This document shows positions 36,915 through 55,923 of a stretch of DNA of 64,000 nt, in pieces. The translations under genes were made by a program, and so were the position numbers. The stretch's first letter is position 1. Each line of letters starts with the position of its first letter. This stretch comes from Chthoniobacterales bacterium (GTDB lineage Bacteria > Verrucomicrobiota > Verrucomicrobiia > Chthoniobacterales > Chthoniobacteraceae). The DNA is taken from NCBI GenBank assembly GCA_038207335.1, contig JBBQZX010000001.1, forward strand, positions 32,001-96,000, given 5' to 3'. The notes below the pieces were generated by a model, which saw only the letters and a list, made by a program, of their open reading frames with translations, was not told the DNA's origin and did no database searches.

Positions 36915-36920
36915 GCTCGG

Positions 36921-37035: not shown

Positions 37036-38052
37036 ATGATTATCGTCACAAAACCAAACGCCACGGACGAGCAGGTGCAGCACATCGTCGATCGAATCGT
37101 CGAGTGGGGGCTAAAGGCGGAAGTCAGTCGTGGAGCCATGCGGACGGTGATCGGCGTCATCGGCGCGGAGGATTCCGTGCGGGAAAAACCCATCGCCGCG
37201 ATCCCGGGAGTCGAGTCGGTGACGCCGGTGCTCAAGCCCTACAAATTAGTCGCGCGAGAATTCCGCGGCGGCAACGACTCGAAGGTCAAGATCGGCGGAG
37301 TCACCGTGGGGAACGGCGAGGTGGTCATCATGTCCGGGCCGTGTTCCGTCGAGACGCGCGAGCAAATCATCTCGATCGCTGGTGCCATCAAGGACGCGGG
37401 CGCGAAAATTCTCCGTGGGGGCGCTTACAAGCCGCGTACGTCGCCCTATTCATTTCAAGGACTCGGAGTCGAGGGGTTGCGTCTGCTGGCGGAGGCGCGG
37501 GAGGCGACCGGCCTGCCAGTCATCACCGAGATCATGGATACGAAAGATCTCGATGTGGTCGAGCGATACGCCGATTGCCTCCAAGTCGGAGCTCGCAATA
37601 TGCAGAATTTTTCGCTGCTCAAGGAAGTCGGGCGCAGCCGCCTGCCGGTCATGCTGAAACGCGGGATGAGCGCGACTATCAAAGACCTTTTGATGAGTGC
37701 AGAATACATCCTGAGCGAGGGAAATTTCAACGTCATGCTTTGCGAGCGTGGCATCCGCACGTTTGAAAACTACACGCGTAACACGCTCGACCTGAACGCC
37801 GTGCCGGTGCTCAAAGCTGAGACGCACCTGCCGGTCGTCGTCGATCCAACGCATGGCATCGGCCTGCGCGAACACGTCTTACCGATGGCGCTCGCTGCCG
37901 TCGCCGCCGGGGCGGATGCGCTCATGGTGGAAGTTCACAACTCGCCGGAGCTCGCGAAAAGCGACGGCGAGCAGGCGCTACTGCCGGCAGAGTTTGCGGA
38001 CCTCGTCGCGCGGGTGCGCAAAGTCGCCGAAGCCGTTGGGCGTTCCGCCTAG
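37036..38052 (+). CDS. aroF: DAHP synthase (class I-beta with N-terminal regulatory domain)
   Basis: [45 protein letters not shown]. Confidence 0.95.
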
Positions 38053-40581: not shown

Positions 40582-42006
40582 ATGCCTTCCCTCAGCATCA
40601 AGCTCCCCGAGAACAAAGGCGAGATCACGCATATGCTGGCGGGTGAGCGGATTACGATCGGCCGCCGCCCCGACAATACGATCCAGATCGTCGATCGCAC
40701 AGTCTCCGGTCACCACGCGGAACTCATTGCGACGAACGGCCACTATCGCCTGCACGATTTAGGATCCACGAATCTCACCTGCGTCAACGGGCAGCAGGTC
40801 ACCGATTACCACCTGCATCTCGGGTGCAAGGTTTCCTTCGGAACCGTCGAGTGCGAATACAGCCCTGATGCGCCTGCGAGGTCGGAGGAAAAGGCCGTGG
40901 AAATGGTGCCGACGCGTGCGGAACTCGAGTTTTTGCGCCGTGAAAATCTCGATCTTCAGTCGAAAATCGCGACCCAGCAGAAGCAGATCGACATCCTCAG
41001 CAGCGCGCGGCTGATGACCAAAGAAACCCAGCAACTCGGCATAGCACCGGAGGCGCACCGGCGGGTTTCGATGGAACGCGACTCGCTGAAGGCCGAGAAC
41101 GAACAACTCAGACGCGACGTCGAGAATCTCAAGGCCGATCTTGCCGCCAGCAAGCGCGACCGAGATGCCACGCGGCAGGCGTGGGAGACAGTGAAGGCGG
41201 AACTCGCGACTTCAAAAGCACCGTCCCCTTTTCCCGAAAAATCGGAGCCGCCCTCTGCCGATCGCGCCGCCGGCTCACCGAATTCGCCGGAATCCAATCG
41301 CGCGCTCGCCACCGTGCTTGCGAGGACGCCGGCCGTGCTGGAGTCGCTCCGGGAAGCGCTGCAAAAACTGAGCGACGATCCTGCAGATGCAGATGCGCGC
41401 GAAGCGATGGTCGCCGCCTCCGCATCTCTGAATGAAGGCACAGCTGCGATCAAACGGCATCCCGTGCAACAACTCGCCGCGTCGCTCGATTCACTCGTCC
41501 GCGAAATCTCTCCCATCGAAGCCCCTCTAGAGCCGAGCGCGATTCGTACGTTGAGCCAGGCTGCGGAACTCACCCGCACGCTGCTCGAACCAAAGCATCT
41601 CAAACGCGCCAAAGAAGTCAGCGCGCCTCGCGCCATTGTCATCGACGATGACGAAGAGTTGCGCGAGACCGTCGCCGCGGCGCTCGAGTTTGGCGACATC
41701 TCGGCCACCGGGATATCCGAACCGGGCGAAGCGCTCGCGAATCTTCGCGAACATCCGGCCGATCTCGTCTTTCTCGATATCGGACTGCCGGGTCAGAACG
41801 GTGTGGACGTGTGTGCTCGCATCCGCGAGATCGAACGCTGCCAGAAAACGCCCATCGTTTTCCTGACGATTTCCGACGATGTGGAGCATCGCGCTCAGTC
41901 GAGCCTGAATGGCGGGAACGACTTTCTCGTGAAGCCTTTCAACATCGTCGAGCTGACGTTGAAGGCCCACACGTGGATTTACCGCGGGCAATTCGGGCTG
42001 CTCTAA
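40582..42006 (+). CDS. FHA domain + coiled coil + helical bundle + response regulator receiver
   Basis: GRRPDN...VSGHHA...DLGSTN (FHA); IDDD, FLDIGLPG, FLT, KPF (receiver). Confidence 0.85.
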   Translation: MPSLSIKLPENKGEITHMLAGERITIGRRPDNTIQIVDRTVSGHHAELIATNGHYRLHDLGSTNLTCVNGQQVTDYHLHLGCKVSFGTVECEYSPDAPARSEEKAVEMVPTRAELEFLRRENLDLQSKIATQQKQIDILSSARLMTKETQQLGIAPEAHRRVSMERDSLKAENEQLRRDVENLKADLAASKRDRDATRQAWETVKAELATSKAPSPFPEKSEPPSADRAAGSPNSPESNRALATVLARTPAVLESLREALQKLSDDPADADAREAMVAASASLNEGTAAIKRHPVQQLAASLDSLVREISPIEAPLEPSAIRTLSQAAELTRTLLEPKHLKRAKEVSAPRAIVIDDDEELRETVAAALEFGDISATGISEPGEALANLREHPADLVFLDIGLPGQNGVDVCARIREIERCQKTPIVFLTISDDVEHRAQSSLNGGNDFLVKPFNIVELTLKAHTWIYRGQFGLL

Positions 42007-42016: not shown

Positions 42017-43408
42017 TCAACGCGCGCCGAAGCCGAAAATCACGACGGGGATCGTGCGCAAAAGGATCGCGAAATCGAGCCAGAGCGACCAGCCGTCGAT
42101 GTATTGCAGATCAAGCTGCACCCATTCGTTGAAGCTTTTCACCTTGTTCCGCCCCGCCACCTGCCACAGGCACGTCAGCCCCGGCTTCATGCTGAGACGG
42201 CGTCGCTGCGCAGTCGTCTCGAATTTCTCCACTTCGTAGATCGGCAGCGGACGCGGCCCCACGAGGCTCATCTCGCCTTTCAAGACGTTCAGTAGCTGCG
42301 GCAATTCATCGAGGCTCGTCTTTCGCAAAAAGCGCCCGAGCTTCGTGATCCGCGGATCGTTTTCGATTTTGAAAACCGGCCCGGACATTTGGTTGAAAGC
42401 CGCAAGTTCTGCCTGCTGCATCGCGGCATCGGTGCGCATCGAGCGAAATTTATACATCGTGAAAGGTCGCCCGTTTTTGCCTCCACGCAGTTGGCTGAAA
42501 AAGATCGGCCCCGGCGACGTGATGCGAATCGCAATCGCGACCGCGATGAGAATCGGAGCTGCGAGCACGAGCCCGACGAAAGCTCCCGTGCGGTCGATGA
42601 CGCTCTTCACCATGAGCGCCCACGACAAATCCGGTGTGGTGCGAAAGACGAGCATCGGCCGTGTTCCGAAGACATCGAAGGCCGGACGCGCGATCGACGT
42701 GCGGATGAAATCTGCGATCAGCCACGCCTCCACGCCCTCGGTTTCGCACGCCGCGATTGCGTCCTGCAAATTGTTCAGATGGCTGTGTCCGCCGGCAAAA
42801 ATAACGCGACTCACCGAGTGCCGATGCAGCGCTTCCACGAATTCCGCAAGCGGCTGATTTTCAATATCGAACTCCTCGACGACCTCGAGCTCCATGATCT
42901 GCTCCGCCGTGAAGGTGTGCCGGAGTTGATGCGTGTCGGCCTTTGTGCCGGCGAGGATGATCGATTCGCGGAGGGACTCAGTTTTTGCACGATGGCGCAG
43001 CCGCTGGATGCCGATTCGTTCACGCAGGAGCAGGAGCACCGGCGCGATGAGGAGAAATAGCGGCATCACGGCGCGGCTCGGCACTTGGAGTCGCAGGAAA
43101 TAGGAGCACGCGGCAATGATGAGCCCGAGCCAGAACGCGGCACGCGCGAGTTGCCCGAGAGACTTCGCGAGCGTCTTCTGGAGCGGATGGGTGTAAAAGC
43201 CCTGCAACTCCAGAATGATCGGGCCGAATGGCATAATCACGAAAAGTAGCCACTGAAATTCCGAGAACGGACCGATCGGTTTGTCGAAAATAGTCCAGTC
43301 GCTGCCGAGGTAGCGCAGCGTGTGCGCGAACCAGAACGCGATGACCAGAAGGATGCCATCGACGATCTGCTGGAATTGGAGATTCAGTTCTTGTTTTCGG
43401 CCGAGCAT
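42017..43408 (-). CDS. Polyprenyl glycosylphosphotransferase (WcaJ-like priming sugar transferase)
   Basis: YKFRSM, DPRITKLGRFLRKTSLDELPQL, GEMSLVGPRP, KPGLTCLWQ. Confidence 0.93.
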   Translation of the reverse strand: MLGRKQELNLQFQQIVDGILLVIAFWFAHTLRYLGSDWTIFDKPIGPFSEFQWLLFVIMPFGPIILELQGFYTHPLQKTLAKSLGQLARAAFWLGLIIAACSYFLRLQVPSRAVMPLFLLIAPVLLLLRERIGIQRLRHRAKTESLRESIILAGTKADTHQLRHTFTAEQIMELEVVEEFDIENQPLAEFVEALHRHSVSRVIFAGGHSHLNNLQDAIAACETEGVEAWLIADFIRTSIARPAFDVFGTRPMLVFRTTPDLSWALMVKSVIDRTGAFVGLVLAAPILIAVAIAIRITSPGPIFFSQLRGGKNGRPFTMYKFRSMRTDAAMQQAELAAFNQMSGPVFKIENDPRITKLGRFLRKTSLDELPQLLNVLKGEMSLVGPRPLPIYEVEKFETTAQRRRLSMKPGLTCLWQVAGRNKVKSFNEWVQLDLQYIDGWSLWLDFAILLRTIPVVIFGFGAR

Positions 43409-43459: not shown

Positions 43460-44158
43460 ATGGCTGCGAGCAAATTAACCACAGAACCGCGAATCGCACA
43501 GGTCGTAGGCACGGTCCACTCCCCTGGATCTCTGCGCCGGGCACTGCGTTTGCGCGCGGGCGATGTCGATTTTCTCGAGCTGCGGGTGGATCATTTTGTG
43601 AAAGATCGCCAAGCGCTTTTGGCTGCGATTCCGCGGCTGAAATTCCCGCTGATCGTGACCGCTCGACATCCTGCAGAGGGCGGCGCAAACGGACTTTCGC
43701 TCGCGCAGCGGCGTGCGCTTTTAGCGGAGTTTTTGCCGTTCGCATCGGCGATCGATGTGGAATTACGCACGGTTTTCGGCGTGGAGACGATCCTCGCGAT
43801 GGCGCGTGGACATCGGGTGAAAGTCATCGTTTCGAGCCACCACTTTACCTCAACACCGAGTGCAAAAGCTCTCGCAGCCTTGATCCGAGGGGCGCGTGAT
43901 GCCGGCGCGGACATCGTGAAAATCGCCGCCCTCTCATCAACGATCGTGAGCCTCCAGCGTTTGATCTCCATCTTCGAGCGCCCGCCCGCACTTCCACTCA
44001 GCGTGATGGGCATGGGCGAGTTCGGGAAAATCTCGCGTCTCGTGCTCGCCGATGCGGGCTCGGTCCTGAATTACGGATACCTCGACGAGCCCAACGCGAG
44101 CGGGCAATGGGAGGCAAGAGAACTCAAGAAGCGCCTCGTGGATATCGCAGCGCGATGA
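43460..44158 (+). CDS. aroD: Type I 3-dehydroquinate dehydratase
   Basis: ELRVD, EGG, IDVEL, SHHF, DIVKIA, MGMG..GKISR. Confidence 0.88.
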   Translation: MAASKLTTEPRIAQVVGTVHSPGSLRRALRLRAGDVDFLELRVDHFVKDRQALLAAIPRLKFPLIVTARHPAEGGANGLSLAQRRALLAEFLPFASAIDVELRTVFGVETILAMARGHRVKVIVSSHHFTSTPSAKALAALIRGARDAGADIVKIAALSSTIVSLQRLISIFERPPALPLSVMGMGEFGKISRLVLADAGSVLNYGYLDEPNASGQWEARELKKRLVDIAAR

Positions 44159-44161
44159 GAT

Positions 44162-44542
44162 CTACGCCGTCTTTGCAAGCGCGGTTTGCGAAAGCACGCG
44201 CATAAGCGCGGTGTAAATCTCGCTTGGACCCATGCCTTTGCTCACATATCCGTTTGCGCCGGCTTTGCGTGCGGTCTGCATCGCCTCTTCGTCGTAGCCG
44301 AGCCCGGTGAACATCACGATGGGCAGGTCCGGGTAGCTGGCGCGGATGATTTTCACGAGTTCGAGGCCGTTGATTTTCGGCATCCCGATGTCGAGGATTA
44401 CTGCCTCGCACGGGTTGAGATCGAGCCACGACTCGACCTTCGTGCTGTCCGTCAGCGACGAAGCGATGTGCCCTTTGTCGCGGAGGAACGTGGTGAGAAA
44501 GCGATTCAGGAGCCGGTTATCGTCAACAACGAGGAAGTTCAT
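44162..44542 (-). CDS. Single-domain response regulator (CheY-like)
   Basis: LVVDD, ILDIGMPKINGL, MFTG, YVSKG. Confidence 0.9.
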   Translation of the reverse strand: MNFLVVDDNRLLNRFLTTFLRDKGHIASSLTDSTKVESWLDLNPCEAVILDIGMPKINGLELVKIIRASYPDLPIVMFTGLGYDEEAMQTARKAGANGYVSKGMGPSEIYTALMRVLSQTALAKTA

Positions 44543-44579
44543 GGAATAGGAGCGGTGCGGCGGTTTCGGATGAAAGTTT

Positions 44580-44595
44580 AGCAGCAGCCATGCCA
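44580..44595 (-). promoter_or_regulatory. Candidate sigma54 promoter upstream of the response regulator
   Basis: TGGCATGGCTGCTGCT(A), GG-N10-GC, ~37 nt before ATG 44542. Confidence 0.6.
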
Positions 44596-44645
44596 TCCGT
44601 TACCGCTGAGCTTCGGGACTTCGACCGCGGCTGCGTCACCCGCGA

Positions 44646-44846
44646 TTAAAAGAGCGTGTAGATGAACGGCGCAGCGGAGGTGGCTCCGAGGATGAGCAGC
44701 GCTGCGAAAAGGCCGAGGATGACGACAATCGGGATCATCCAGTACTTCTTGTTGTGCTTCAGCATTTCGACGATTTCGCGTCCGAGGCTCGGCGGTTTTT
44801 CGTCGCCGGCTTGCTTGAAGGTTTTCGGTTCGTCGGGCTGGCTCAT
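44646..44846 (-). CDS. DUF5989 (SxtK-like) small single-TM protein
   Basis: 66 aa, KKYWMIPI-TM-AAPFIYTLF; downstream of the carbamoyltransferase and SxtJ-like genes. Confidence 0.85.
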   Translation of the reverse strand: MSQPDEPKTFKQAGDEKPPSLGREIVEMLKHNKKYWMIPIVVILGLFAALLILGATSAAPFIYTLF

Positions 44847-44854
44847 GTGGAGAT

Positions 44855-45292
44855 TTAAAATTGGCGGAAATAGCGGGCCGGATCGACCGACTTTTCGGCA
44901 TCGCGCCAATACGTCGGACGCGTGGGATCCCATTTTTTCTGCAGAGGATCGCGGCCGAAGGCGCGCATGAGGACGCCGATGGGCGTGATGACGAGGAAGA
45001 AGAACGCGGCGACGAGAACATTGCTCATCACGATGCCGATGCAACACGCCACGAAAAACCAGAGCAGATAAAACGGCTTCGCCACCGCAGGGAAAATCCA
45101 AAGGGCGACGCCGACGAGGATGCCATACGTGAGGAATTCCGAGAGGTGCGGCTTCGGGGCGATGATGTGCAACCATGCAGCGAGGCGAAGTGCGATTTTG
45201 ATCACCGCAAAGCCGATCGCCATCGTGCGGGCAAAGCTGCGCCGCTCGTTGAGGTTCGGATGCCAGTTGGTGTCGGTGAAGGGGTTGATCAT
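44855..45292 (-). CDS. SxtJ-family membrane protein
   Basis: RSFA...TM segments, FFLVITPIGVLMR, DPL, TYW, C-terminal YFRQF. Confidence 0.82.
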   Translation of the reverse strand: MINPFTDTNWHPNLNERRSFARTMAIGFAVIKIALRLAAWLHIIAPKPHLSEFLTYGILVGVALWIFPAVAKPFYLLWFFVACCIGIVMSNVLVAAFFFLVITPIGVLMRAFGRDPLQKKWDPTRPTYWRDAEKSVDPARYFRQF

Positions 45293-45304
45293 TCGTGCGG
45301 CGAT

Positions 45305-47152
45305 TCAGTCCAGCCCGAAGCTCTTCACGTATTTTGATTTCTCGGTGTCGGAGAGTTGCGGCTGCTCGGGCTTGAAGAGGATGCAGTTTTCCAACACGAG
45401 CACGTCCATTTCGCTCGCCATGAAGCAGCGGTAGGCATCCTGCGGGGTGCCGACGATCGGTTCGCCGCGAATGTTGAAGCTCGTGTTGACGATGAGCCCG
45501 CAGCCGGTCTGGCGTTTGAACTCGCGGATGAGGCGGTAGTAGCGGCCGTTGCGACGCTCATCGACGGTCTGGATGCGCGCGGAAAAATCGACGTGCGTGA
45601 TCGCGGGGACGGTGGAGCGGGGGATATTTACGCGTGTGCGGAGATCGGGGTCGCACATGGCTGTGAGCTGGTCGGACGAGAGCGGGAGGCGCTTCGATTC
45701 GCGTACGGACGCGACGAGCAGCATGTAGGGCGACTCGCAGTCGAGATCGAAAAAATCGGGTGCGTCCTCAATGAGGCAACTCGGAGCGAAGGGGCGGAAC
45801 GACTCGCGGTATTTGATCCGCAGATTCATCTGCGACTGCATCGCGGGGCTGCGCGCGTCGCCGATGATGCTGCGGGCACCGAGCGCGCGCGGGCCAAATT
45901 CCATGCGGTCTTGAAACCAGCCGACGACCTTTTCCTCGCGCATCGCATCGACGGTTTTGGTGAGGAGTTCCGCTTCGTCGGCGATGAAGTGGTGTGGGAT
46001 TTTCTCTGCATCGAGGAATGCGCGGATTTCGTCGTTGGAAAATCGCGGGCCGAGCAATGCTCCTTTCAGCGAGTCGTGCGGGTCTGCCTTTCGATCGAGC
46101 CCGAGGAGATGGAATTGCGCAAAGAGCGCGGCTCCGAGCGCGCCGCCTGCGTCTCCCGCGGCTGAGGGAATCCAGATGCGATCGAAGATTTTCTCGCGGA
46201 GCAGGACGCCGTTCGCGACGCAATTCAGTGCGACTCCGCCGGCGAGCACGAGATTGCGTGAGCCGGTGAGCGCGCTGGCGTGTCGCGCCATGCGGAGGAC
46301 GATTTCCTCGGTCACTTTTTGGATCGAAGCGGCGAGGTCCATCTCGCGCTGCGTGATCGCCGATTCGCTGAGGCGAGGTGGGCCGTCGAAGAGCGTGTCC
46401 AACTTCGGACCGGTCATCGTGAGGCCCTGCGCATAGTTGAAAAAGCTCATGTCCATCGCGAACGATCCGTCGTTCTTGAGGTCGATGAGTTTCTCCAAAA
46501 TCACATCGGCGAAGCGCGGTTCGCCATACGGCGCAAGGCCCATAAGTTTGTATTCGCCGCTGTTGACTTTGAACCCGCAGAAATACGTGACCGCGCTGTA
46601 GAGCAGGCCGAGTGAGTGGGGAAATTCGAGCGTTTTGAGCAGCTCAATTTTGCTGCCGCGCCCGTGGCCGATGCTCGCGGTGTCCCACTCGCCGACGCCG
46701 TCCATCGTGAGGATCGCGGCGTCGTCGAAAGGCGACGGATAGAACGCGCTCGCGGCGTGGGATTCGTGATGGAGCGTGAATGCGATGCGTTTTTTGAAGT
46801 CGCCGCCGAGCGATTTTTGGATTTCGCGCGCGAGATGCAGCTTCGTCTTCAGCCACAGCGGGAGGGCCATCATGAACGAGCGCAGGCCCGATGGGGCGTA
46901 GGCGAGATAGGTCTCGAGGAGGCGGTCGAATTTGAGGAGCGGCTTGTCGTAGAAGACGACGTAGTCGAGTTGGTCGGAAGTGATGCCTGCCTCGCGAAGG
47001 CAGTATTTTACAGCGTTCGAGGGGAATGCGTGGTCGTGCTTGATGCGCGTGAAACGCTCCTCCTGTGCGGCGGCGACGATGTCTCCATCGACGATGAGCG
47101 CGGCTGCGCTGTCATGGTAAAAGGCTGAGATGCCGAGGATGCGCGTGCTCAA
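45305..47152 (-). CDS. O-carbamoyltransferase (NodU/CmcH/SxtI family)
   Basis: ILGISAFYHDSAAA, QEERFTR, HHESHA, DGVGE, GEYKLMGLAPYG, GGVALN, RESFRPFAP, NTSFN; TTG start overlaps the MBOAT stop (TTGA). Confidence 0.93.
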   Translation of the reverse strand: MSTRILGISAFYHDSAAALIVDGDIVAAAQEERFTRIKHDHAFPSNAVKYCLREAGITSDQLDYVVFYDKPLLKFDRLLETYLAYAPSGLRSFMMALPLWLKTKLHLAREIQKSLGGDFKKRIAFTLHHESHAASAFYPSPFDDAAILTMDGVGEWDTASIGHGRGSKIELLKTLEFPHSLGLLYSAVTYFCGFKVNSGEYKLMGLAPYGEPRFADVILEKLIDLKNDGSFAMDMSFFNYAQGLTMTGPKLDTLFDGPPRLSESAITQREMDLAASIQKVTEEIVLRMARHASALTGSRNLVLAGGVALNCVANGVLLREKIFDRIWIPSAAGDAGGALGAALFAQFHLLGLDRKADPHDSLKGALLGPRFSNDEIRAFLDAEKIPHHFIADEAELLTKTVDAMREEKVVGWFQDRMEFGPRALGARSIIGDARSPAMQSQMNLRIKYRESFRPFAPSCLIEDAPDFFDLDCESPYMLLVASVRESKRLPLSSDQLTAMCDPDLRTRVNIPRSTVPAITHVDFSARIQTVDERRNGRYYRLIREFKRQTGCGLIVNTSFNIRGEPIVGTPQDAYRCFMASEMDVLVLENCILFKPEQPQLSDTEKSKYVKSFGLD

Positions 47153-48591
47153 AACTGGAAATAGACGAAGGGCCGAGCCTGCTGCTGCGGGCCGGTGAGC
47201 GCGAGCGCGAGGAATGCGACGGCGAAGGCGTAGTAGGCGCTCCAGCGGAGCCAGCGCGGCTTGGTGGCGAGGATGTCCCAAACGGGTCGCGCGCGGCCGA
47301 TGGACTCGGCGGCGAAGAGCGCGCAGACGAGGGCGAGGGCGATGAGGAATTCGGCGGAGCTGAGGCCGGGATGGAGGGTGGCGATGGGCGCAGTGAAGTC
47401 GGTGAAGATACGCCGCATGATGAGAGATGCGTCGGCGAGATTCGAGGCGCGGAAGAAAACCCAGGTGAGGGCGATGAGATTGAAGACGAGCGCGATTTTC
47501 AGTGCAGCGGCGAGGGTGGACGGGTGCGGATTTGTGGGACGGATTTTGCGTAAGAGGAGTTGCGCGCTGACGAAGATTCCGTGGAGGAGGCCCCAGACGA
47601 CGAAGGTCCAATTTGCGCCGTGCCAGATACCGCTGAGGAAGAAAACGATGAGGAGATTCACGCAACGGCGGGCGAGCGGGACGCGGCTGCCGCCGAGCGG
47701 GATGAAGACGTAATCGCGGAACCAAGTGGAGAGTGAGATGTGCCAGCGACGCCAGAATTCGCCGACGGACTGCGCTAGATAGGGCCGCCAGAAATTCCGC
47801 ATGAGGTCGATGCCGAGGATGCGCGCGGTGCCGCGGGCGATGTCGGAGTAGCCGGAGAAGTCGCAATAGATCTGGACTGAAAATGCGTAGGTCGCGATGA
47901 GAAGCTGCGCGCCGGAATGCTGTGCTGGAGCGGCATAGACGGCATCGACGAGGATCGCGAGGCGGTCGGCGATGACGACTTTTTTGAAGAGACCGGAGGC
48001 GATGAGTTTCAGGCCGTCGAGGCAGCGGGCGAGGTCGAAGCGGATGAGCCGGATGTTGTGAAATTGCGCGAGAAGATTTTGCGGACGTTCGATGGGGCCG
48101 GCGACGAGCTGGGGGAAAAAGAGGACATAGACGGCGAAGTTGAGGAGCGAGCGCTCGGGCGGAACGCGTCGCCAATAGACCTCGAGCGTGTAGCTCATTG
48201 ACTGAAACGTGTGGAAGGAGAGGCCGATGGGCAGGAGGATCGCGAGGTGCGATAGCGGCGCGGGCTGGCCGAAATGTGCGAAGAGTCCTGAGATATTGTC
48301 CTGAAAGAAATTGAAGTATTTGAAGAAGCCGAGGAGGGAGAGATTTGCAGTCAGACTCGCGGCGAGGATCACGCGACGCCGCGTGCCATTGGCCTTTTCC
48401 AAGAGGAGCCCGGAGGTGAAATCGATGAGGATGACGCCGAATAGGATAAGGATGTAGGCAGGGACGAACGCCATGTAGAAGACACAACTGGCGACGAGCA
48501 GCAGCGGCATCCGGGCGCGGACGGGTAGGAGGAAGAAGAGAAGCGCGACCAGCGGGAAAAAGACCGCGAACTCAAGAGAGTTGAAGAGCAT
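47149..48591 (-). CDS. MBOAT O-acyltransferase (AlgI/DltB-like)
   Basis: LPIGLSFHTFQ, FPQLVAGPIER, DFSGYSDIA, FWRRWHISLS, GIWHGA, C-terminal PFVYFQF. Confidence 0.95.
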   Translation of the reverse strand: MLFNSLEFAVFFPLVALLFFLLPVRARMPLLLVASCVFYMAFVPAYILILFGVILIDFTSGLLLEKANGTRRRVILAASLTANLSLLGFFKYFNFFQDNISGLFAHFGQPAPLSHLAILLPIGLSFHTFQSMSYTLEVYWRRVPPERSLLNFAVYVLFFPQLVAGPIERPQNLLAQFHNIRLIRFDLARCLDGLKLIASGLFKKVVIADRLAILVDAVYAAPAQHSGAQLLIATYAFSVQIYCDFSGYSDIARGTARILGIDLMRNFWRPYLAQSVGEFWRRWHISLSTWFRDYVFIPLGGSRVPLARRCVNLLIVFFLSGIWHGANWTFVVWGLLHGIFVSAQLLLRKIRPTNPHPSTLAAALKIALVFNLIALTWVFFRASNLADASLIMRRIFTDFTAPIATLHPGLSSAEFLIALALVCALFAAESIGRARPVWDILATKPRWLRWSAYYAFAVAFLALALTGPQQQARPFVYFQF

Positions 48592-48665
48592 TCAGCGGAG
48601 AAATTAAACCGCGGAGGAACGGCGCCGCCGAGAATACCAGAGGCGTTCAATGCGCACTTTGCTGT

Positions 48666-49700
48666 TCAATGTTTTGTCGTTGCGATTGGAAGGTGGAGGG
48701 GATTTTCGCGGATGAGTTGATTCACGAAAATGTCCGCCATGAGGACGTGTCCGGCGGCGTTTGGGTGTGGGTCGTCGGCTTGGATCCAAAGCGAGGTGAC
48801 GTCGGCTCCGAACTGCTTTTGGAAGGTGGGAAAGGTGTTGGTCGTCGGGATGCCGAGTGCGGTGAAAGCGGTTTCCATTTTCGCGTAGAGGGCGGCGAAT
48901 GGTGAGCCGGGGGCGAGGTCGTGAATGTCGGGGATGATCTGAATTTCAAAGGACACCCCGGCGGCTCGGCAGCTGTCGCGCAACGCAGCGATGTGCTCTC
49001 GCGTGATTTTCCATGCGTCGGAATCGTCGGCGTAGAGCTGGTTGTAGAAGGTGAAGAGGTCGGTTTTTTGCTGCCGGAATTTGAACTGCCCGAAGCGGTC
49101 GTAGCAGAAGGCGGCGAGCAGCGAATGCTTTAGCAGAGGGCTGTCGTGGCCCATCGAGCGCGGCTGCACGTCGCTGATGAAGTAGTGGAGCAGCACCATG
49201 TCCGGTCGGACACGCGGGAATTGATCAAGGAAAAGCTGGTGCTGGAAGACGGTGTTGTAGTTGCCGATCCCGGCGTTCTGGATTTCAAAAGTGACGTCGG
49301 GGCCGAATAGCTTTTCGGTGTTGAGGCGATGCTCGGCGACGGCGGTGAAGACGGAGTCGGCGGAGACGCCCCAGCCCATGGTGATTGAGCTGCCGAGGAC
49401 GAGGATGCGCTCGGTGCCGGGGGGCTTTGGCTCGAGGAGTTCGGGGGCGCGGTTACCGAGGGAGTTGAGCGAAATTTCCACGCCCATGAGCCGCGCGCTG
49501 CTGCCCGGACGATGGACATGGCTGACGATGCCGCGAGGGTCGCGCATTTTCAGCGCCTTCGCGTATTTCACCATCTCGATATTGTAGATGAGCTTGCGCG
49601 CGGTAATGAGGCGGAGCGCGAGTTCGCCGAGCGCGAGGGTGAGGACGGTCGCGGTGAGGATGAAGATGCAGCCGAAGATCAGCTCGCGTTTGCGGGTCAT
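48666..49700 (-). CDS. Membrane-anchored SGNH/GDSL-family protein
   Basis: N-terminal TM (LGELALR), LGSSITMG, NAGIGNY, DPHPNAAGH. Confidence 0.85.
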   Translation of the reverse strand: MTRKRELIFGCIFILTATVLTLALGELALRLITARKLIYNIEMVKYAKALKMRDPRGIVSHVHRPGSSARLMGVEISLNSLGNRAPELLEPKPPGTERILVLGSSITMGWGVSADSVFTAVAEHRLNTEKLFGPDVTFEIQNAGIGNYNTVFQHQLFLDQFPRVRPDMVLLHYFISDVQPRSMGHDSPLLKHSLLAAFCYDRFGQFKFRQQKTDLFTFYNQLYADDSDAWKITREHIAALRDSCRAAGVSFEIQIIPDIHDLAPGSPFAALYAKMETAFTALGIPTTNTFPTFQKQFGADVTSLWIQADDPHPNAAGHVLMADIFVNQLIRENPLHLPIATTKH

Positions 49701-49827
49701 GCGAAAAAGGCGGAAATGGTCGAACTCCCGGGCACTAGGGAGGCGGGAGCGATGTGCGCCGCGCGCCGGGGTGGCGAGGCCCGGAGTTTGCACTTACGAT
49801 TTGCCCGCGAAAGTGAATTCTGCGCGC

Positions 49828-51009
49828 GTGAATTTTTCTCTGAAGGCAAAGCTGGTCGTGGCGCTTTTCGCGACGCTGTTTTGCATCCTCTTTCTAGAAG
49901 CCGCCGTGCGGATGATGTGCCGCCGGGATGTGGATGGGAATGTGTGGGTCCGATCGACGCACCTGAAGCCGTATTGTGTGCCGGTGAGATCGGTGGAGGC
50001 GGTGCTCGAGCAGTATGCGGCGAGACCCGATTCGGCGCTCGAATACGATGCGCAGCTCGGCTGGACACAGCGCCCCGGCGTCGATGTCCACAACGCGCAG
50101 GGGTTCATTTCATCGCAGCCGGAGGTGCCGCTTGTGGCAGCCTCCGGGCGGCTGCGCGTCGCGGTGTTTGGCGGCTCTTTTACGCAGGGGAATTTCCAGA
50201 CGGGCTGGTGGCGGGTGCTGGAGGAAAAATTGCGTGCCGCCGGGGTGGACGCGGAGGTGCTGAACTTCGGCGTGGCCGGTTACGGGATGGATCAGACACT
50301 GCTTCGATGGAGGCTGGACGGGGCGAAGTACTGCCCGGAAATCGTGGTCTTTGGTTTCTGTGCCGCGAATGCACGGGACAATGTGAACCTCGTCCGCGCG
50401 CTGCAGCACGCGGATAGCAGCATTCCTTTTTTAAAGCCACGCTTTTTGCTGGATGGTGAAAATCTGAAGCTGATCGATTCACCGACGCCGCCGCCGGATG
50501 CTGTGGCCGGGCTGCTAGCTCGGCTTTCGGAGTGGCCGTTGATCGGGGACGATTTCTTTTACGACCCGGATGATTTTCGGATGACATTACGGCGGAGAAG
50601 CCGCCTTTACGCCATGGTGGAGGCGAAAGTGGAGGCACTCACGGAGGGACGAGGGAATGCAGAGATTTACGCGCCGGAGGGTGAGCCGATGCGGCTTTCG
50701 GAGGGGATCGTGGATGAGTTTGCGCACCAGGTGGAGGTGGCGGGGAGCCGGTTCGTCGTCCTGAATCTGCCGACGGCGCCTGACCTTTTCGAGTTTCAAA
50801 CGCGGGGGGCATTTTCGTTTGAAAGCCTGTATCGTGCGTTGGAGAAAAAGCACGAAATGGTGCCGACGGAGGGCGCGCTTCTGGACGCTGCCGGGACTCG
50901 GCCACTCCGCGGTTTTTATCATGACGGTCACTACTCGAAGGAGTTCAACGCGGTGATTGGGAGGGTGCTGGCGGATGCGATACGAAGGGGGCGGGAGACT
51001 GGGAAGTGA
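49828..51009 (+). CDS. Membrane-anchored SGNH/GDSL-family protein
   Basis: N-terminal TM (LEAAVR), YDAQLGW, FGGSFTQG, NFGVAGYG, DGHY; start approximate. Confidence 0.82.
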   Translation: MNFSLKAKLVVALFATLFCILFLEAAVRMMCRRDVDGNVWVRSTHLKPYCVPVRSVEAVLEQYAARPDSALEYDAQLGWTQRPGVDVHNAQGFISSQPEVPLVAASGRLRVAVFGGSFTQGNFQTGWWRVLEEKLRAAGVDAEVLNFGVAGYGMDQTLLRWRLDGAKYCPEIVVFGFCAANARDNVNLVRALQHADSSIPFLKPRFLLDGENLKLIDSPTPPPDAVAGLLARLSEWPLIGDDFFYDPDDFRMTLRRRSRLYAMVEAKVEALTEGRGNAEIYAPEGEPMRLSEGIVDEFAHQVEVAGSRFVVLNLPTAPDLFEFQTRGAFSFESLYRALEKKHEMVPTEGALLDAAGTRPLRGFYHDGHYSKEFNAVIGRVLADAIRRGRETGK

Positions 51010-51042: not shown

Positions 51043-52185
51043 CTATTTTGTCCAGCGGTGGGCGTCGGGGCTTCGAAGGAAATGGATGAAGCCGCGGACG
51101 ATTGTGATGTTCAAAAAAAGAAATCCGGCGGGGAGCGAGAGGATGCGGGAGCGTGCGGACGGGAGCGCGATGCCGACGATGGCGAGAGCGTAGAAACAGC
51201 TCTGGCAGATGAATGGGAGGCGATACAGCCGATGAGCGAGGAGCGCGAGGTTGCTGGCGAAAAGCGCCGCGAGGAGGAACGGGGCGAGGAGGCGCAGGTA
51301 TTTGTGGGAGATTAGTTGCCACCAGAGGCGGTGCTTCCATGGGAGGAGCCACGCGGGATGCGCGATGAGCATTTGGAAATTACCGGCGAGTGTGCGGCGT
51401 TTGCGGTGGCGCTCGGCGGCGGGGCTCAGTGGCTGCGGGTCGAACGCAAGCGCGTCCGGGTCATGCAGCACCCGAAAGCCGCGAGCGGCGATCTGCATCG
51501 GAATGACGACATCATCGAGGATCGTGCCGGGTGCGAGCGGTGTGAATGCGGAGCGACGGATCGCGTAAACGGCGCCGGTGCAGCCGATGCAGGAATCCCA
51601 GTCGGATTCCGCGGCGCGGATGGATTTCTCCATTCGCCAGTACGCGTCCACGCCTTTGGCGAGGCCACTCTCCGAGGGTGCGATCTCGAGCGAGCCACTG
51701 ACGGCTCCGATTTTAGGATCGGAAAAATGCGCGGTGAGACGCGCGATGGTGTCGGATGAAAAACGCTGGCGCGCATCGGTGAAAACGAGGATATCCGCGG
51801 AGGCGCGCCGAACGGCGGCGTTGAGCCCGGCGGCTTTTCCGCGACGCTCGGCGAGGGAAAGCATGTCGATGCGCGAGCTTTCCAATGCGTGAGCCGCGGT
51901 GGTGGTGGCGTCAGTGGAACCGTCCGATATGAGGAGGACGCGCAACTTTTCGGGCGGATAGTCAGAGGCGAGCAGGTTTTCGATTCGCGTGGAAATGAGA
52001 GCGGCTTCGTTGTGCGCGACGACGATGGCGCAGACCTCGGGTTGTGGATGATCCTGCGCCATGGCGATGCCGCGAGCGCGGCGGTGCGCGAGGAAGCCGA
52101 TGAGGAGCTGGTATCCGAGAAATGTGTAGGCGAGCGCGAGCCCGCTTCCCCAAAAGATCGCGGTGAAAATGGGTGCGCCAGTCAT
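51043..52185 (-). CDS. Glycosyltransferase family 2 (membrane-anchored)
   Basis: AHNE, SDGSTD, GKAAGLN, FTDA, GAVYAIRR, LDD, SHKYLRL. Confidence 0.9.
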   Translation of the reverse strand: MTGAPIFTAIFWGSGLALAYTFLGYQLLIGFLAHRRARGIAMAQDHPQPEVCAIVVAHNEAALISTRIENLLASDYPPEKLRVLLISDGSTDATTTAAHALESSRIDMLSLAERRGKAAGLNAAVRRASADILVFTDARQRFSSDTIARLTAHFSDPKIGAVSGSLEIAPSESGLAKGVDAYWRMEKSIRAAESDWDSCIGCTGAVYAIRRSAFTPLAPGTILDDVVIPMQIAARGFRVLHDPDALAFDPQPLSPAAERHRKRRTLAGNFQMLIAHPAWLLPWKHRLWWQLISHKYLRLLAPFLLAALFASNLALLAHRLYRLPFICQSCFYALAIVGIALPSARSRILSLPAGFLFLNITIVRGFIHFLRSPDAHRWTK

Positions 52186-52222
52186 GTCTTCGCGAGCCCG
52201 CATGGCCGCACAGCCGAGGCGC

Positions 52223-53674
52223 TCACATGCGCTTCAAAACGGCGGCCCAGAAATGAATGGTGGCCCAGACGATAGTCCCAATGGCCAGCAGGTCGAACCA
52301 GCCGATGCGATTCCACGGCATCGCCGTGTTTGGCGCGGTTTCGGGCTCCATATTGTCGCGCTGCAAAGTGGCGATGGCCGCCACCGGTTCGAGCGCGAGC
52401 ACTGCGGTGTCGATGGCAGGCGCGAGTTCGCCGGCAAGTTCGGGCGTTGGCAAAAAACGACCGCGCCAGGACGGGATGGCGGGCGTGAGCGGCGCGGCTT
52501 CCGGATCGGGAACGTATTGCGAGATGCCGCGGAGATGCCGGTGAAATGCGGCGATCGCGGCGGTGAACATGAAGAAAGTCGGGCGATATCCGAAATCCAC
52601 CATCCATGAGGAAACGAGGTAGGAGACGACGAGGACGAAGAGACATCGCCGGATGCGCTCGTCGTCGTCCGTGGAGGTTTTCGCGGTGATGAGTGTGCGC
52701 AAATTGCAGAAGAGGACGCCGAGAAAGCAGAAGAGGCCGACTTTTCCCAGCTCCGCACCGATCTGCACGTAAGAAGAGTGTGCAGCTTTGTTGTAGTGGT
52801 GGACGGCCTTGAAGTCTTTTAGCCACTGGCCGTATCCGATCCCGGTTGTGCGTGTCTGTAGGCGGTTCAGGCCGTGGGTGAATGCGACGACGCGGCCCAT
52901 GATCGCGCCATCTGATTTCGCGCGGTCGAGTTCTGTCATGCGCGGAAGTTTCCAGAGGACGGCTCCGCCAAAACTGATCGCGGCGACGATGATGATTATC
53001 TGCACAGCCTTTGGCCGGCCAAACGTCTGCGTCGCGAGCACGGTGGCTGCGGTGCACAGAAACGCGCCTTTCGAGAGTGTGAGGTAGATGCACAAGAGCG
53101 GCAGGAGGATGAGGGTGATGCCAAGGCATTTCACTACGACTGGGCGCTTCCAGACGAAGAGGAAGTAGATCATTGGGATCGCCGGGACGACGTTGTGACC
53201 GAGCGCGTTTGGGTTTTTGAAGATGGAAAGATTGATCGTGAGGCGTCCTTGCATCCGGCCATTCGTAATCTCATAGCTGCCGAGCGGGTCGAATCCGTAC
53301 TCGCTCGCGACGGCGAGTGCGGCGAGGGCGACGACAAGGAGCGCCCACCAGCCGACGAATTGCCGAATGCGGGGCGTGGTGGTGAGCGTCTGGACGATGA
53401 CAACGTAGAAAACGGCGAGCGGGAAAACCGCCTTGCAGGTCTCCCAATGCGCGTCGGATGCGCTGATGATCCATGCGAAAAATGCGAGCATCATCCAGTC
53501 GTGCGGCGTCCTGAGCAGGTCGCCAAGGCGCAGGCTGCGCTCGCGAAAAAAGAGGGTGACCAGCGCCATGATCATGACGAGCTGGACGAAGTGGAGCTTT
53601 GAAAAAATAGCCCCCCACTCCTGCGGACGGATGTAATACATCACGAGGAAAAGGATGACGGAGACGAAGTCCAA
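52223..53674 (-). CDS. Wzy polymerase / O-antigen ligase-family protein
   Basis: YIRPQEW, NPNALG, TLSKGA, GIGYG, AHSSYVQIGAELG; multiple TM segments. Confidence 0.8.
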   Translation of the reverse strand: MDFVSVILFLVMYYIRPQEWGAIFSKLHFVQLVMIMALVTLFFRERSLRLGDLLRTPHDWMMLAFFAWIISASDAHWETCKAVFPLAVFYVVIVQTLTTTPRIRQFVGWWALLVVALAALAVASEYGFDPLGSYEITNGRMQGRLTINLSIFKNPNALGHNVVPAIPMIYFLFVWKRPVVVKCLGITLILLPLLCIYLTLSKGAFLCTAATVLATQTFGRPKAVQIIIIVAAISFGGAVLWKLPRMTELDRAKSDGAIMGRVVAFTHGLNRLQTRTTGIGYGQWLKDFKAVHHYNKAAHSSYVQIGAELGKVGLFCFLGVLFCNLRTLITAKTSTDDDERIRRCLFVLVVSYLVSSWMVDFGYRPTFFMFTAAIAAFHRHLRGISQYVPDPEAAPLTPAIPSWRGRFLPTPELAGELAPAIDTAVLALEPVAAIATLQRDNMEPETAPNTAMPWNRIGWFDLLAIGTIVWATIHFWAAVLKRM

Positions 53675-53761: not shown

Positions 53762-54892
53762 CTAACCGGCTCGGCGTGGTGCGGCGGTGGCGCGGTAGAG
53801 GCGCTCGTAAGCGTCAAGCATCGCGGCGATCGAGAAGCGGTCTACCGCTTTCCGGCGCGCGGCGCGGGCAAATGTAGCGAGCTGTGCGGGGTCGGCAAGC
53901 AGCCCGGTGAACGCGGCGGCGAGAGCGGTGGAGGTGGAGAGGTCGGTGATGATTCCGTCACGGCCGCTGTCGATGAATTGCTCGTGGCCGCATCCGGTAT
54001 TCGCGAGAACAGGGACTCCGCAGGACATGGCTTCTAGCGCGGCGTTCGAAAGACCTTCATTCGAGGAGGGGACTGCGAGGAGATCGAGCGCTTGGTAAAA
54101 TGGAACCGGGTCGAGTTTGAAGCCTGTCAGATGGATGCGATCGCAGTGCGGACTCGCTGCGGCGCGGTCGTGGATCGCACGTTCCTTTGGTCCGCCGCCA
54201 CCGATCACGAGGAGGTGTGCCGCTGGAAAATGGGGTGCGATTTTCTCGAATGAATCGAGGAGAACATCGTGGCGTTTGAACTCACCGAATCGCCCGGAGA
54301 TGCCAATGAATACAGCATCCGCAGGTAATCCGATCGCGTCGCGGGCGACGGAACGCTGCGCGGGTGTGAAGCGTGTGGTGTCCACGCCGTTTGGAATCGG
54401 CGTGATTCTTTCGAGTGGAAAATGGAGTGCGGCGAGTTGCGCGCGGATGCCGTCGGAGACGGTGTGAACGTGGCGGCAAGTGCGGTAGAGCCAGCGGCGT
54501 TGGCGCAGGCGTTTCGTGGTTAGGTCGGCGTCGGTTAGCTGGCTGTGCTCGCCGTGGAGGAGTGGCGTTCGGTAGCCGGCGAGCGTGGCGAGTGCGGAGT
54601 AAATGAGCGGGCCGAGATTGTGACTGTGGACGACATGAGGACGGACGCGGGAAATCTGCCGGGCGAGGCCGCGCACGGCTTTCCACGAAAAAGCGGTTTT
54701 TTTTCCCAGCACTTCGACGTCGCTGGGCGCTGGCAAACGTGCTGCGAACGCGCCGCGGCGCTCGAGGCAGGCGATGTGCATTTCGATGCCGCGTGGGAGC
54801 AATCCGCTGGCGAGATTGACGACGCCATTTTCCATCCCACCGGGTTCGAGCGAGTGGACAACGTGGAGGATTTTCAGCGGTGCGCTGCTCAC
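53762..54892 (-). CDS. Glycosyltransferase family 4
   Basis: ILHVVHSLEPGGME, NGVD, GRFGEFKRH, EGLSNAALEAM; GTG start overlaps the upstream stop. Confidence 0.9.
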   Translation of the reverse strand: MSSAPLKILHVVHSLEPGGMENGVVNLASGLLPRGIEMHIACLERRGAFAARLPAPSDVEVLGKKTAFSWKAVRGLARQISRVRPHVVHSHNLGPLIYSALATLAGYRTPLLHGEHSQLTDADLTTKRLRQRRWLYRTCRHVHTVSDGIRAQLAALHFPLERITPIPNGVDTTRFTPAQRSVARDAIGLPADAVFIGISGRFGEFKRHDVLLDSFEKIAPHFPAAHLLVIGGGGPKERAIHDRAAASPHCDRIHLTGFKLDPVPFYQALDLLAVPSSNEGLSNAALEAMSCGVPVLANTGCGHEQFIDSGRDGIITDLSTSTALAAAFTGLLADPAQLATFARAARRKAVDRFSIAAMLDAYERLYRATAAPRRAG

Positions 54893-55923
54893 CGGGTGCG
54901 TGGAAATGCGCCTTCCACAGCGGGCGGTGCGGTGACCTTTGCCGGTGCAGTGAGGAGGAATCGTGCGAGTGTGCGAAGCCTGAAAAGTGGACGCTCGGTG
55001 ATGCGGCCCGGGCGGAGAAAAATCGGATACAAAAGGACGGATGTCGTGAGGTAGGCGAGCGGGCGTAGGCGGAGCCCTTCGTCGAAATGTGTCCACGCGA
55101 TCTGGAAATAATGAACAGACCATGCGCGGAGCCAGAAGGGGATGTCGGCGTGTGAAACCGCCGCAGAAGACCAGGCTTTTCGCAGCACGGCGCGCGAGTT
55201 GTGCATCATGCGGGCGGCATTTTTGCTCATGTTGCCGGAGTGTCGGCGGATGAGCGCGAGTGGTTGGCCGATGAACCAAACGCGGTACCGCTTGGCGGCG
55301 CGAATCCACATGTCGCGATCCTCGGAACTGCGCAGCGAGGTATCAAAGTCCCCGCATTTTGCGAAGACGTCGCGGCGGATGACGATGGAGGAGGAGAGGG
55401 GGCGGTTGCGGAGGACGAAGTCGCGCGCGGTCAGCTCGCGGTCGGGCTCTGGGGCGGAATAGCGGGATTCGACGTGTGCGCCAGCGGAGTCCATTCTGAA
55501 ACTGTTCGTGGCAACGAGGGCGAAGGAATCGGAGAGTTGCGCGAACTGGCGCATGACATCCGCGAGGAGCGAGGGAAGCCAGAGATCATCGGCATCAAGG
55601 AATGCAACGAAGGGAAATCGCGCCTCGTGGATGCCGGTGTTCCGAGCGGCGGAAAGCCCGGCATTTTCCTGCCAAATATAGCGGACGCGAGGATCGGGTT
55701 GCTGTGCGACGATTGCGCGAGTGTCATCCGTGGAGCCATCGTCGATCACGATGACTTCCAGTTCGCGGTGCGTCTGGGCCAAACCGGACGCGATCGCGCC
55801 GAGGAGATAGTGCGCGTAATTGTGCGCGGGGATGACTACGGAAACACCGACAGCGCGACTCTCCGCATTGCCGACGCGCTGTGGCTGCGAAGAAAACTCC
55901 GGCTCAAGGCCACGACTCATCAC
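54889..55923 (-). CDS. Glycosyltransferase family 2
   Basis: VSVVIPAHN, IDDGSTD, SAARNTG, FLDADD, SED. Confidence 0.92.
   Translation of the reverse strand: MMSRGLEPEFSSQPQRVGNAESRAVGVSVVIPAHNYAHYLLGAIASGLAQTHRELEVIVIDDGSTDDTRAIVAQQPDPRVRYIWQENAGLSAARNTGIHEARFPFVAFLDADDLWLPSLLADVMRQFAQLSDSFALVATNSFRMDSAGAHVESRYSAPEPDRELTARDFVLRNRPLSSSIVIRRDVFAKCGDFDTSLRSSEDRDMWIRAAKRYRVWFIGQPLALIRRHSGNMSKNAARMMHNSRAVLRKAWSSAAVSHADIPFWLRAWSVHYFQIAWTHFDEGLRLRPLAYLTTSVLLYPIFLRPGRITERPLFRLRTLARFLLTAPAKVTAPPAVEGAFPRTR

Follow-up and report, generated by a model that had tools for sequence, protein, structure and literature searches.

The FxYxxF sequence has been described as an “acyl shuttle” motif: its tyrosine bears the acyl group in the microprotein DltX, and in membrane-bound O-acyltransferases (MBOATs) such as PatA the motif is fused to the C-terminus and an SGNH enzyme takes the group from the tyrosine (PMC12148441). 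Such acyl-tyrosine shuttles have only recently been worked out, for D-alanylation and peptidoglycan acetylation, and pathways other than D-alanylation are stated to lack a DltX-like microprotein (PMC12148441). Here we analyse 64,000 nucleotides of a Chthoniobacterales genome (Verrucomicrobiota; assembly GCA_038207335.1, contig JBBQZX010000001.1, positions 32,001 to 96,000 of the forward strand), hereafter called the window, in whose own numbering positions are given. In this window, genes for a NodU/TobZ-type O-carbamoyltransferase, a small SxtJ-like membrane protein and a DUF5989 microprotein with a tail of the FxYxxF form lie together with an MBOAT gene and two SGNH genes (SGNH-A and SGNH-B). 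The array is best explained as two separate polymer-decorating systems side by side, one centred on the MBOAT and one on the carbamoyltransferase.

Genes resembling those of the second system are known from saxitoxin biosynthesis, where sxtJ measures 405 bp, sxtK 165 bp and sxtL, a GDSL lipase homologue, 1281 bp, and where sxtI, sxtJ, sxtK and sxtL carry consecutive accession numbers (PMC2679770); all four share one phyletic class (PMC2684587). Their sizes fit the genes described here, a comparison made by published sizes, order and annotation only. The available portions of the 2009-2010 papers, and of a review and a preprint from 2025-2026, assign no mechanism to SxtJ or SxtK. The term “DUF5989” was absent from the literature searched (main texts), and nothing in this literature tied DltX or an acyl shuttle to carbamoyl transfer in this way.

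All six genes named in a preliminary description of the window are present (Table 1), with the co-orientation, close spacing and divergent second SGNH gene reported there. SGNH-A adjoins the MBOAT directly upstream at a distance of 74 nt, the SxtJ-like gene follows the carbamoyltransferase after 12 nt, and only 8 nt separate it from DUF5989. The TTGA coupling of carbamoyltransferase and MBOAT (47152-47149) was confirmed as an overlap of the TTG start codon (47152-47150) with the TGA stop codon (47151-47149). The array sits inside a Wzy-type polysaccharide locus, and Pfam bears out the flanks described earlier, with Wzy-pathway genes on one side and a priming transferase on the other. Three window proteins (SGNH-A, SGNH-B and the SxtJ-like protein) score below the curated Pfam cut-offs and their calls rest on family-level evidence. 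None of the NCBIfam models matched the SxtJ-like protein, DUF5989 or SGNH-B, and other window proteins were matched only far below threshold.

The DUF5989 microprotein has a basic stretch beside the membrane (KHNKKYW), a single hydrophobic helix and the tail AAPFIYTLF, which ends at the stop codon. W36, P39, P60 and Y63 are invariant in 59 sequences. Among the tails of the same-phylum sample found by Pfam, window included, FIYTLF accounts for 40 of 61 and FIYSLF for 10 of 61, and 58 of 61 fit F-x-Y-x-x-F. Basic residues occur ahead of the helix but not behind it, from which the tail is predicted to point into the periplasm. The family is very large, with 5793 library representatives (50% identity) at E ≤ 0.001 and 2376 at E ≤ 1e-10; among the best 150 of the 5793, the match reaches the last residue in 149, as read from the results table. 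A protein atlas search returned DUF5989 clusters only. Fused forms were sought among 213 candidates of 117-2000 aa, none of which scored E ≤ 0.001, which is weak evidence, and a long representative (P0258, 232 aa) was rejected as a fusion, its Arg/Pro/Ser-rich front looking like a wrong-frame gene call.

For comparison across genomes, DUF5989 was searched with Pfam in 301 genomes of the same phylum, 68 of which contain it, and up to 20 kb were fetched around 60 of the matches. A wide set, obtained by a pattern scan (APFIYTLF or NKK[YW]WMI) with one genome per species, yielded at least 602 stretches, of which 468 were confirmed and the best 80 loci kept; it spans Planctomycetota, Myxococcota, Acidobacteriota, Proteobacteria, Actinomycetota, Elusimicrobiota, Bacteroidota and others. 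Profiles seeded with the window’s proteins were iterated over all stop-to-stop open reading frames (ORFs) of the collected loci, and neighbourhoods were counted at the 99 DUF5989 loci (window excluded) with at least 4.5 kb on both sides.

Across these loci, the unit of carbamoyltransferase, SxtJ-like protein and DUF5989 is real and widespread. Its cultured carriers include Paludisphaera borealis PX4, Singulisphaera sp. GP187, Ensifer adhaerens L18, Hoeflea alexandrii and Leisingera sp. SS27. A carbamoyltransferase lies near DUF5989 in 82 of the 99 loci and SxtJ in 85 (iterated profile), and the complete triad with all three genes adjacent was found in 81. DUF5989 stands without the other two genes nearby in 13 loci; all five lone-DUF5989 genomes tested hold an adjacent carbamoyltransferase-SxtJ pair elsewhere, with the enzyme in three ORFs in one of them. 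Designating the carbamoyltransferase I, SxtJ J, DUF5989 K and the SGNH gene L, the commonest orders among 140 other loci are I-J-K (27), I-J-K-L (17), J-I-K (12), L-I-J-K (9) and J-I-K-L (9). The two biggest neighbour clusters overall proved to be alternative reading frames over the carbamoyltransferase, and the largest genuine ones outside the module were an ABC-transporter ATPase (17 loci) and GT1/GT4 glycosyltransferases (11 loci; n = 141). No further family is common at the module in the 141 loci, nor is a dedicated exporter conserved nearby. A flank survey of 12 randomly chosen triad loci, with 92 neighbour proteins within 7 kb run against Pfam, revealed glycosyltransferase or Wzy genes in just three and a phosphomannomutase in one more, so that a glycan-gene neighbourhood, which had been expected for the triad, flanks it in only 3 or 4 of the 12. 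Given the rarity of other neighbour families and the few sampled loci with glycan genes, the module is a self-contained island and not a regular component of glycan clusters.

Two single loci illustrate how the unit varies. A gammaproteobacterial contig (L155, 243-2483) encodes a natural fusion of carbamoyltransferase (residues 8-602) and SxtJ (627-744) in a single frame. In genome G070 (contig C1, ~1743700-1745500; L181-L183, L176), the carbamoyltransferase next to an intact SxtJ is broken into three ORFs, DUF5989 is located ~336 kb from both, and the search detected no strong member of the SGNH family; this module is possibly decaying.

The second line of evidence concerns the SGNH enzymes. 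Whether seeded with SGNH-A or with SGNH-B, the profiles arrived at an identical set of 94 ORFs, and among 85 aligned members the G-x-S is kept in 98%, the His in 97%, the Asn in 85% and the Asp in 77%. Both window copies keep the G-x-S and D-x-x-H of this 85-member family (G134, S136, N173, D341 and H343 in SGNH-A; S197, N226, D446 and H448 in SGNH-B, ORF numbering), and they are the only two family members in this genome at E ≤ 1e-25. An N-terminal hydrophobic anchor was found in 81 of 85 members, and as Lys and Arg are denser before the anchor than after it in 67 of these 81, the catalytic domain is predicted to lie outside the cytoplasmic membrane. The AlphaFold2 (AF2) model of SGNH-A (predicted local distance difference test, pLDDT, 92.3) has an N-terminal helix, and its best structural matches are SGNH enzymes, with CgnD at the top of the Foldseek results (E 1.7e-8, TM 0.51/0.58). 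When the family profile was compared with solved structures, CgnD (8a2n) was likewise the only near-full-length match (E 3e-18, profile positions 35-334).

Enrichment of the triad near SGNH genes had been put forward as a test of the earlier idea, and it turned out positive: an SGNH gene of the same family lies within 4.5 kb in 47 of 81 triads. The density of SGNH matches per flank is 0.155 in the first kb from DUF5989, 0.088 at 2-3 kb, which corresponds to the far side of the carbamoyltransferase gene, and ~0.01 beyond 5 kb. The module gene nearest to the 74 SGNH ORFs found within 1.5 kb is DUF5989 in 43 cases (38 of 43 on the same strand), the carbamoyltransferase in 21, SxtJ in 9 and the MBOAT in 1. 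At the genome level, 66 of the 301 phylum genomes have a strong SGNH family match (E ≤ 1e-25). Cross-tabulated by hand, DUF5989 and SGNH are both present in 61 genomes and both absent in 228, DUF5989 alone is present in 7 and SGNH alone in 5. Several of the seven involve short contigs, and G290 has an SGNH match of E 3.2e-25, just at the threshold. Counts of the two genes are equal within families f9 (3/21), f10 (11/26), f14 (1/5), f20 (3/48), f21 (4/5), f25 (3/9), f28 (2/5) and f30 (3/3), leaving f31 (5/6 vs 6/6) as the sole unequal one of nine compared families that were polymorphic or positive. In five genomes without DUF5989, SGNH matches were only partial and did not exceed 51.6 bits, and in five with DUF5989 there were one to many near-full-length matches, scoring 90-212 bits. 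This co-occurrence pattern is strong despite the inclusion of related genomes and the way the profile was trained. Many genomes carry several SGNH paralogues, with ~15 above 100 bits in G149, and an uncultured alphaproteobacterial locus (L135, 5600-18600) holds two DUF5989 genes and approximately ten SGNH paralogues around one carbamoyltransferase and one SxtJ.

The MBOAT, by contrast, counts as a neighbour of the module and not as a member. Co-occurrence of the triad with MBOAT genes, also proposed as a check, was found in only 1 of the 99 loci (L031) and in none of the 92 neighbour proteins of the 12 surveyed loci. The last residues of the window’s MBOAT before its stop codon are FVYFQF. This tail of its own and the scarcity of MBOATs at other loci indicate a separate partner of the PatA/PatB type outside the carbamoyl module. 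With an MBOAT domain, a C-terminal FxYxxF and, next door, an anchored SGNH enzyme that keeps its catalytic Ser and His, the MBOAT and SGNH-A together show the features of fused-tail systems and probably form an ordinary O-acyl relay of the PatA/PatB kind, the group probably being acetyl. Three further MBOATs occur in this genome. At L031 (5500-10700, contig C6 of G299), the genes run SxtJ-DUF5989-carbamoyltransferase-SGNH-MBOAT, with the carbamoyltransferase spread over three ORFs and FIYFQF at the end of the MBOAT.

The window thus contains two FxYxxF tails (FVYFQF on the MBOAT, FIYTLF on DUF5989) and exactly two SGNH genes of one family, a parts list that fits the two parallel relays envisaged in the preliminary description. 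That core idea survives in a modified form, well supported by comparative genomics: the genes predict two relays side by side, with the MBOAT placed outside the carbamoyl one.

Starting from the observed gene set, motif, conservation, MBOAT independence, and SGNH linkage and covariation, we propose that a carbamoyl-tyrosine shuttle on DUF5989 feeds periplasmic SGNH transferases, a reading to which we give an even chance. In the first system, the MBOAT would pass an acyl (probably acetyl) group via its FVYFQF tail to an anchored SGNH enzyme. The second would comprise the carbamoyltransferase, the SxtJ-like protein, DUF5989 and a CgnD-like anchored SGNH. Its cytoplasmic carbamoyltransferase, judging from TobZ-type enzymes, would make carbamoyl-AMP from carbamoyl phosphate and ATP while being held at the membrane by SxtJ and DUF5989, as a predicted complex weakly suggests. 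Going by the motif, the carbamoyl group might then be loaded onto the invariant tyrosine of the FIYTLF tail. The catalytic serine of the SGNH enzyme would take it from the resulting aryl carbamate and attach it, beyond the cytoplasmic membrane, to a hydroxyl group of an envelope glycan, steps that we propose on the basis of the gene linkage, the conservation of the catalytic residues and the topology prediction. That a serine enzyme should accept carbamoyl from an aryl carbamate is reasonable on chemical grounds. One donor set could serve several SGNH paralogues with different acceptors; for the window, the Wzy-pathway polysaccharide made by the flanking genes is the likeliest acceptor.

The closest solved relatives of the carbamoyltransferase are decarbamoylnovobiocin carbamoyltransferase (9s2t), GdmN and TobZ, matched over the full length (E 1e-105 to 3e-124), and the residues of HHxxH and GPRALGxRS, at the metal and nucleotide sites, are invariant in 59 sequences. 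TobZ-type enzymes form carbamoyl-AMP from carbamoyl phosphate and ATP. The SxtJ-like protein belongs to a family in which 42 of 59 aligned relatives match PF19588 at E ≤ 0.01 (best E 2.3e-16), with a basic C-terminal stretch (GRDPL...SYW...RY-x-x-QF) as the better-kept part. Its AF2 model (pLDDT 90.6) shows three long helices (14-40, 50-66 and 68-111). Its N-terminus would be cytoplasmic given the fusion behind the carbamoyltransferase in L155, and the charge distribution favours both ends inside the cell.

Folding of the partners together, another check suggested at the outset, gave a weak pass that also counts among the reservations about the shuttle. The carbamoyltransferase, SxtJ and DUF5989 were folded together on our own alignments with DUF5989 as the scored partner, and the complex reached an ipSAE of 0.58 versus 0.01 for the best of three controls, in which the carbamoyltransferase was replaced. 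In the calibration, among 157 solved complexes 116 passed the mark, as did 2 of 215 mismatched pairs; with values of at most 0.60, no more than 18 of the 157 passed, together with both of these mismatched pairs, counts that hold only roughly since our own alignments were used. Contacts agree between runs to at least 94%, the partner pLDDT is at least 71 and no interface was reported by the prediction. This lends weak support to a three-protein complex at the membrane.

Several further observations weigh against the carbamoyl-tyrosine shuttle. The carbamoyltransferase requires cytoplasmic ATP and carbamoyl phosphate, whereas the DUF5989 tail is predicted to be periplasmic; loading in the cytoplasm of a tail on the far side of the membrane would need a crossing route, and none is visible in the module. 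Neither SxtJ nor the rest of the module shows a counterpart of the MBOAT tunnel and catalytic histidine. In SxtJ, no column is invariant and no polar or catalytic residue is kept throughout, W129 alone being conserved at ≥90%, and the predicted fold has no match in the PDB (best Foldseek E 1.5). TobZ-type enzymes carbamoylate their final acceptors directly. There are 34 triads of the 81 without a same-family SGNH gene nearby, along with the genomes that carry only DUF5989 or only SGNH; the SGNH profile was seeded by the window’s two copies and trained on the same DUF5989 loci, and the genome-level counts include related genomes, which are not independent. The tails of the wide set are biased because its loci were picked by a pattern covering the tail. 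CgnD, for its part, has been reported as a slow leader peptidase and not a transferase (PMC10070186). Its authors describe the activity as very slow and could not label the serine (PMC10070186), and its true role may involve the carbamoyl step.

The Dlt-like analogy of the preliminary description also failed at the level of homology. A DltX relationship of DUF5989 was rejected: the Pfam DltX model (PF12459) matches 0 of 59 members even at E ≤ 10, and hhalign of DUF5989 with DltX gives a probability of 0.24%. As homology is undetectable, the likeness rests on a six-residue motif and the architecture, which likewise speaks against the shuttle. The DltX model matches another gene in this genome, of 51 residues (26.1 bits) and ending in FVYQGF, on contig C18. 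That contig (L185, 1-3108) encodes a DltD (163 bits), a phosphopantetheine carrier protein, the true DltX and a DltA-like adenylating enzyme, with DltX between carrier protein and ligase and next to DltD; the genome-wide MBOAT search found none there.

The main rival is direct carbamoylation in the cytoplasm of a nucleotide- or undecaprenyl-linked sugar, where SxtJ and DUF5989 would tether or regulate the enzyme and the SGNH proteins would be editing esterases. We regard this as rather unlikely. It agrees with the closest solved enzymes (the 9s2t enzyme, GdmN and TobZ), which act straight on their final acceptors, with the lack of conserved catalytic residues in SxtJ and of a visible route through the membrane, and with an early proposal of SxtL as a decarbamoylase (PMC2679770, PMC2885083). 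However, a plain tether would not need an invariant terminal P-F-I-Y-T-L-F at the stop codon, kept across many phyla, nor a tail predicted on the membrane side opposite the enzyme, and editing alone leaves the SGNH covariation and the adjacency of DUF5989 and SGNH genes unaccounted for.

Two other explanations are less likely than direct carbamoylation. DUF5989 might be a tethered precursor peptide whose tail, once carbamoylated, the CgnD-like SGNH enzyme would cleave off as a small modified peptide, in the manner of crocagin biosynthesis, an improbable scenario even though CgnD is both the sole solved structure to match the SGNH profile near-fully and the top Foldseek match. The core of the crocagin precursor CgnA is Ile-Tyr-Trp. 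Unlike in typical precursors, the corresponding “core” of DUF5989 hardly varies between phyla and conservation extends over the full microprotein; neither a binding protein of the CgnB/CgnE type nor a dioxygenase of the CgnC type was found in the scanned window genes or the 92 neighbours of the 12 loci, many genomes have several to ~15 SGNH paralogues per single DUF5989, and an exporter dedicated to a product is not conserved nearby. Finally, a single Dlt-like machine, in which DUF5989 is the DltX-like partner of the neighbouring MBOAT and also moves carbamoyl, would explain the one co-oriented array, the TTGA overlap and the recurrence of the same gene set at L031, but is very improbable, as both MBOATs carry fused tails (FVYFQF and FIYFQF) like those that need no microprotein (PMC12148441), all but L031 of the 99 other loci lack an MBOAT, and the true DltX and DltD of the genome, with the carrier protein and DltA-like ligase, lie on another contig (C18).

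Around the module, the shikimate-pathway and regulatory genes listed in Table 1, which are unrelated to it, accompany the priming transferase. On the other side, the GT4 and second GT2 ORFs overlap by 421 nt as called, and the GT4 start is probably internal given this overlap. Elsewhere, a plasmid search gave one match, plasmid PALBO1 of Paludisphaera borealis PX4 (L186), whose annotation lists, in this order, carbamoyltransferase - SxtJ family - DUF5989 family - sugar O-acetyltransferase, next to exosortase and exopolysaccharide genes. PEP-CTERM proteins or exosortase/EpsI genes adjoin the module in three loci (L033, 8035-9060; L096, 10450-12174; L186), which hints at a link with exosortase-type exopolysaccharide systems. 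A phage search returned four records with a carbamoyltransferase at 28-30% identity; for one of them, Pelagibacter phage Mosig, no micropeptide is annotated, as judged by annotation only, with no further scan.

Table 1. Genes and motifs of the array and of its surroundings in the window (positions in window numbering).
Feature	Position	Strand	Evidence or remark
DAHP synthase (shikimate pathway)	36844-38052		around the priming transferase
FHA-receiver protein	40582-42006		around the priming transferase
Priming sugar transferase (Bac_transf)	42017-43408	-	229.4 bits
Type I dehydroquinase (shikimate pathway)	43460-44158		between priming transferase and module
Lone receiver (response regulator) protein	44162-44596	-	directly after DUF5989, between priming transferase and module
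DUF5989 microprotein, 66 aa	44646-44846	-	PF19451, 65.4 bits
FIYTLF codons, terminal hexapeptide of DUF5989 (candidate carbamoyl-carrying tyrosine motif)	44649-44666	-	read from sequence
SxtJ-like small membrane protein, 145 aa	44855-45292	-	PF19588, 22.3 bits (below cut-off 24.4)
Carbamoyltransferase (NodU/TobZ-type O-carbamoyltransferase), 615 aa	45305-47152	-	Carbam_trans_N (PF02543), 322.7 bits; Carbam_trans_C (PF16861), 230.7 bits
MBOAT, 480 aa	47149-48591	-	PF03062, 111.5 bits (cut-off 27)
FVYFQF codons, C-terminal tail of MBOAT	47152-47169	-	read from sequence
SGNH-A	48666-49700	-	Lipase_GDSL_2, 31.9 bits (below cut-off 32.9)
SGNH-B, divergent paralogue of SGNH-A	ORF 49588-51009, likely GTG start 49813 or 49828	+	Lipase_GDSL_2, 26.5 bits
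GT2	51043-52203	-	Pfam context
Wzy_C-type polymerase/ligase	52223-53674	-	Pfam context
GT4	53762-55309	-	Pfam context
GT2, second copy	54889-55923	-	Pfam context
Wzc-like P-loop protein	55920-58103	-	Pfam context

A broader interpretation is possible, and we offer it tentatively: quartets of the SxtI/J/K/L type might constitute a third trans-envelope acyl relay beside MBOAT-SGNH and AT3-SGNH. Here, the TobZ-type enzyme would load an aryl carbamate on the terminal tyrosine of SxtK/DUF5989, SxtJ would enable loading at or across the membrane, and the SxtL-like SGNH proteins would be the true acceptor-specific carbamoyltransferases. If so, O-carbamoylation of envelope glycans would take place outside the cytoplasm in many bacteria of more than ten phyla, the functions attributed since 2008 to SxtJ, SxtK and SxtL would have to be revised, and “peptidases” resembling CgnD might handle carbamoyl groups. 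The carbamoyl-tyrosine shuttle proposed for the window gives a testable role to two small proteins first seen in the saxitoxin gene cluster and, if true, would explain how O-carbamoyl groups come to be on surface polysaccharides and which genes to look for. A very large DUF5989 family shares the tail and the layout and is tied to a carbamoyltransferase and one SGNH family, not to MBOATs.

Compared with described systems, the module resembles Dlt (DltB/DltX/DltD) in its one-helix microprotein with a terminal FxYxxF, the anchored SGNH as proposed taker and an ATP-activated cytoplasmic donor. It differs in having no MBOAT or carrier protein and a TobZ-type carbamoyltransferase with SxtJ instead, and its SGNH is CgnD-like and outside the Pfam DltD family. 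In the window region scanned by Pfam there is no carrier protein or adenylating ligase, both being found on contig C18. The FVYFQF MBOAT with its adjacent anchored SGNH shares the layout of PatA/PatB-type pairs (PMC12148441), although this SGNH partner comes from the family that usually accompanies the carbamoyl module and the acceptor, to judge from the flanking genes, is probably an exopolysaccharide and not peptidoglycan. In OatA-type AT3-SGNH proteins, too, an SGNH domain outside the membrane is supplied by an acyl-tyrosine intermediate (PMC12148441), in their case with a large AT3 domain that uses acetyl-CoA and is unrelated to SxtJ or DUF5989.

On the carbamoyl side, the saxitoxin cluster has the same four kinds of genes, and its I-J-K-L order is among those counted above. 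Its acceptor is a small alkaloid of secondary metabolism, whereas the window holds an envelope glycan locus. TobZ, GdmN and decarbamoylnovobiocin carbamoyltransferase are the same two-domain enzyme over the full length but act alone on soluble small molecules, while the branch found in the module is tied to two small membrane proteins. In crocagin, the cluster of CgnD, the nearest solved SGNH, also contains a carbamoyltransferase (CgnI; PMC10070186), whereas CgnD is soluble and the other crocagin enzymes are absent from the scanned window and neighbour proteins. Taken together, comparative genomics supports well the view that the carbamoyl module would be a variation on the acyl-tyrosine/SGNH principle.

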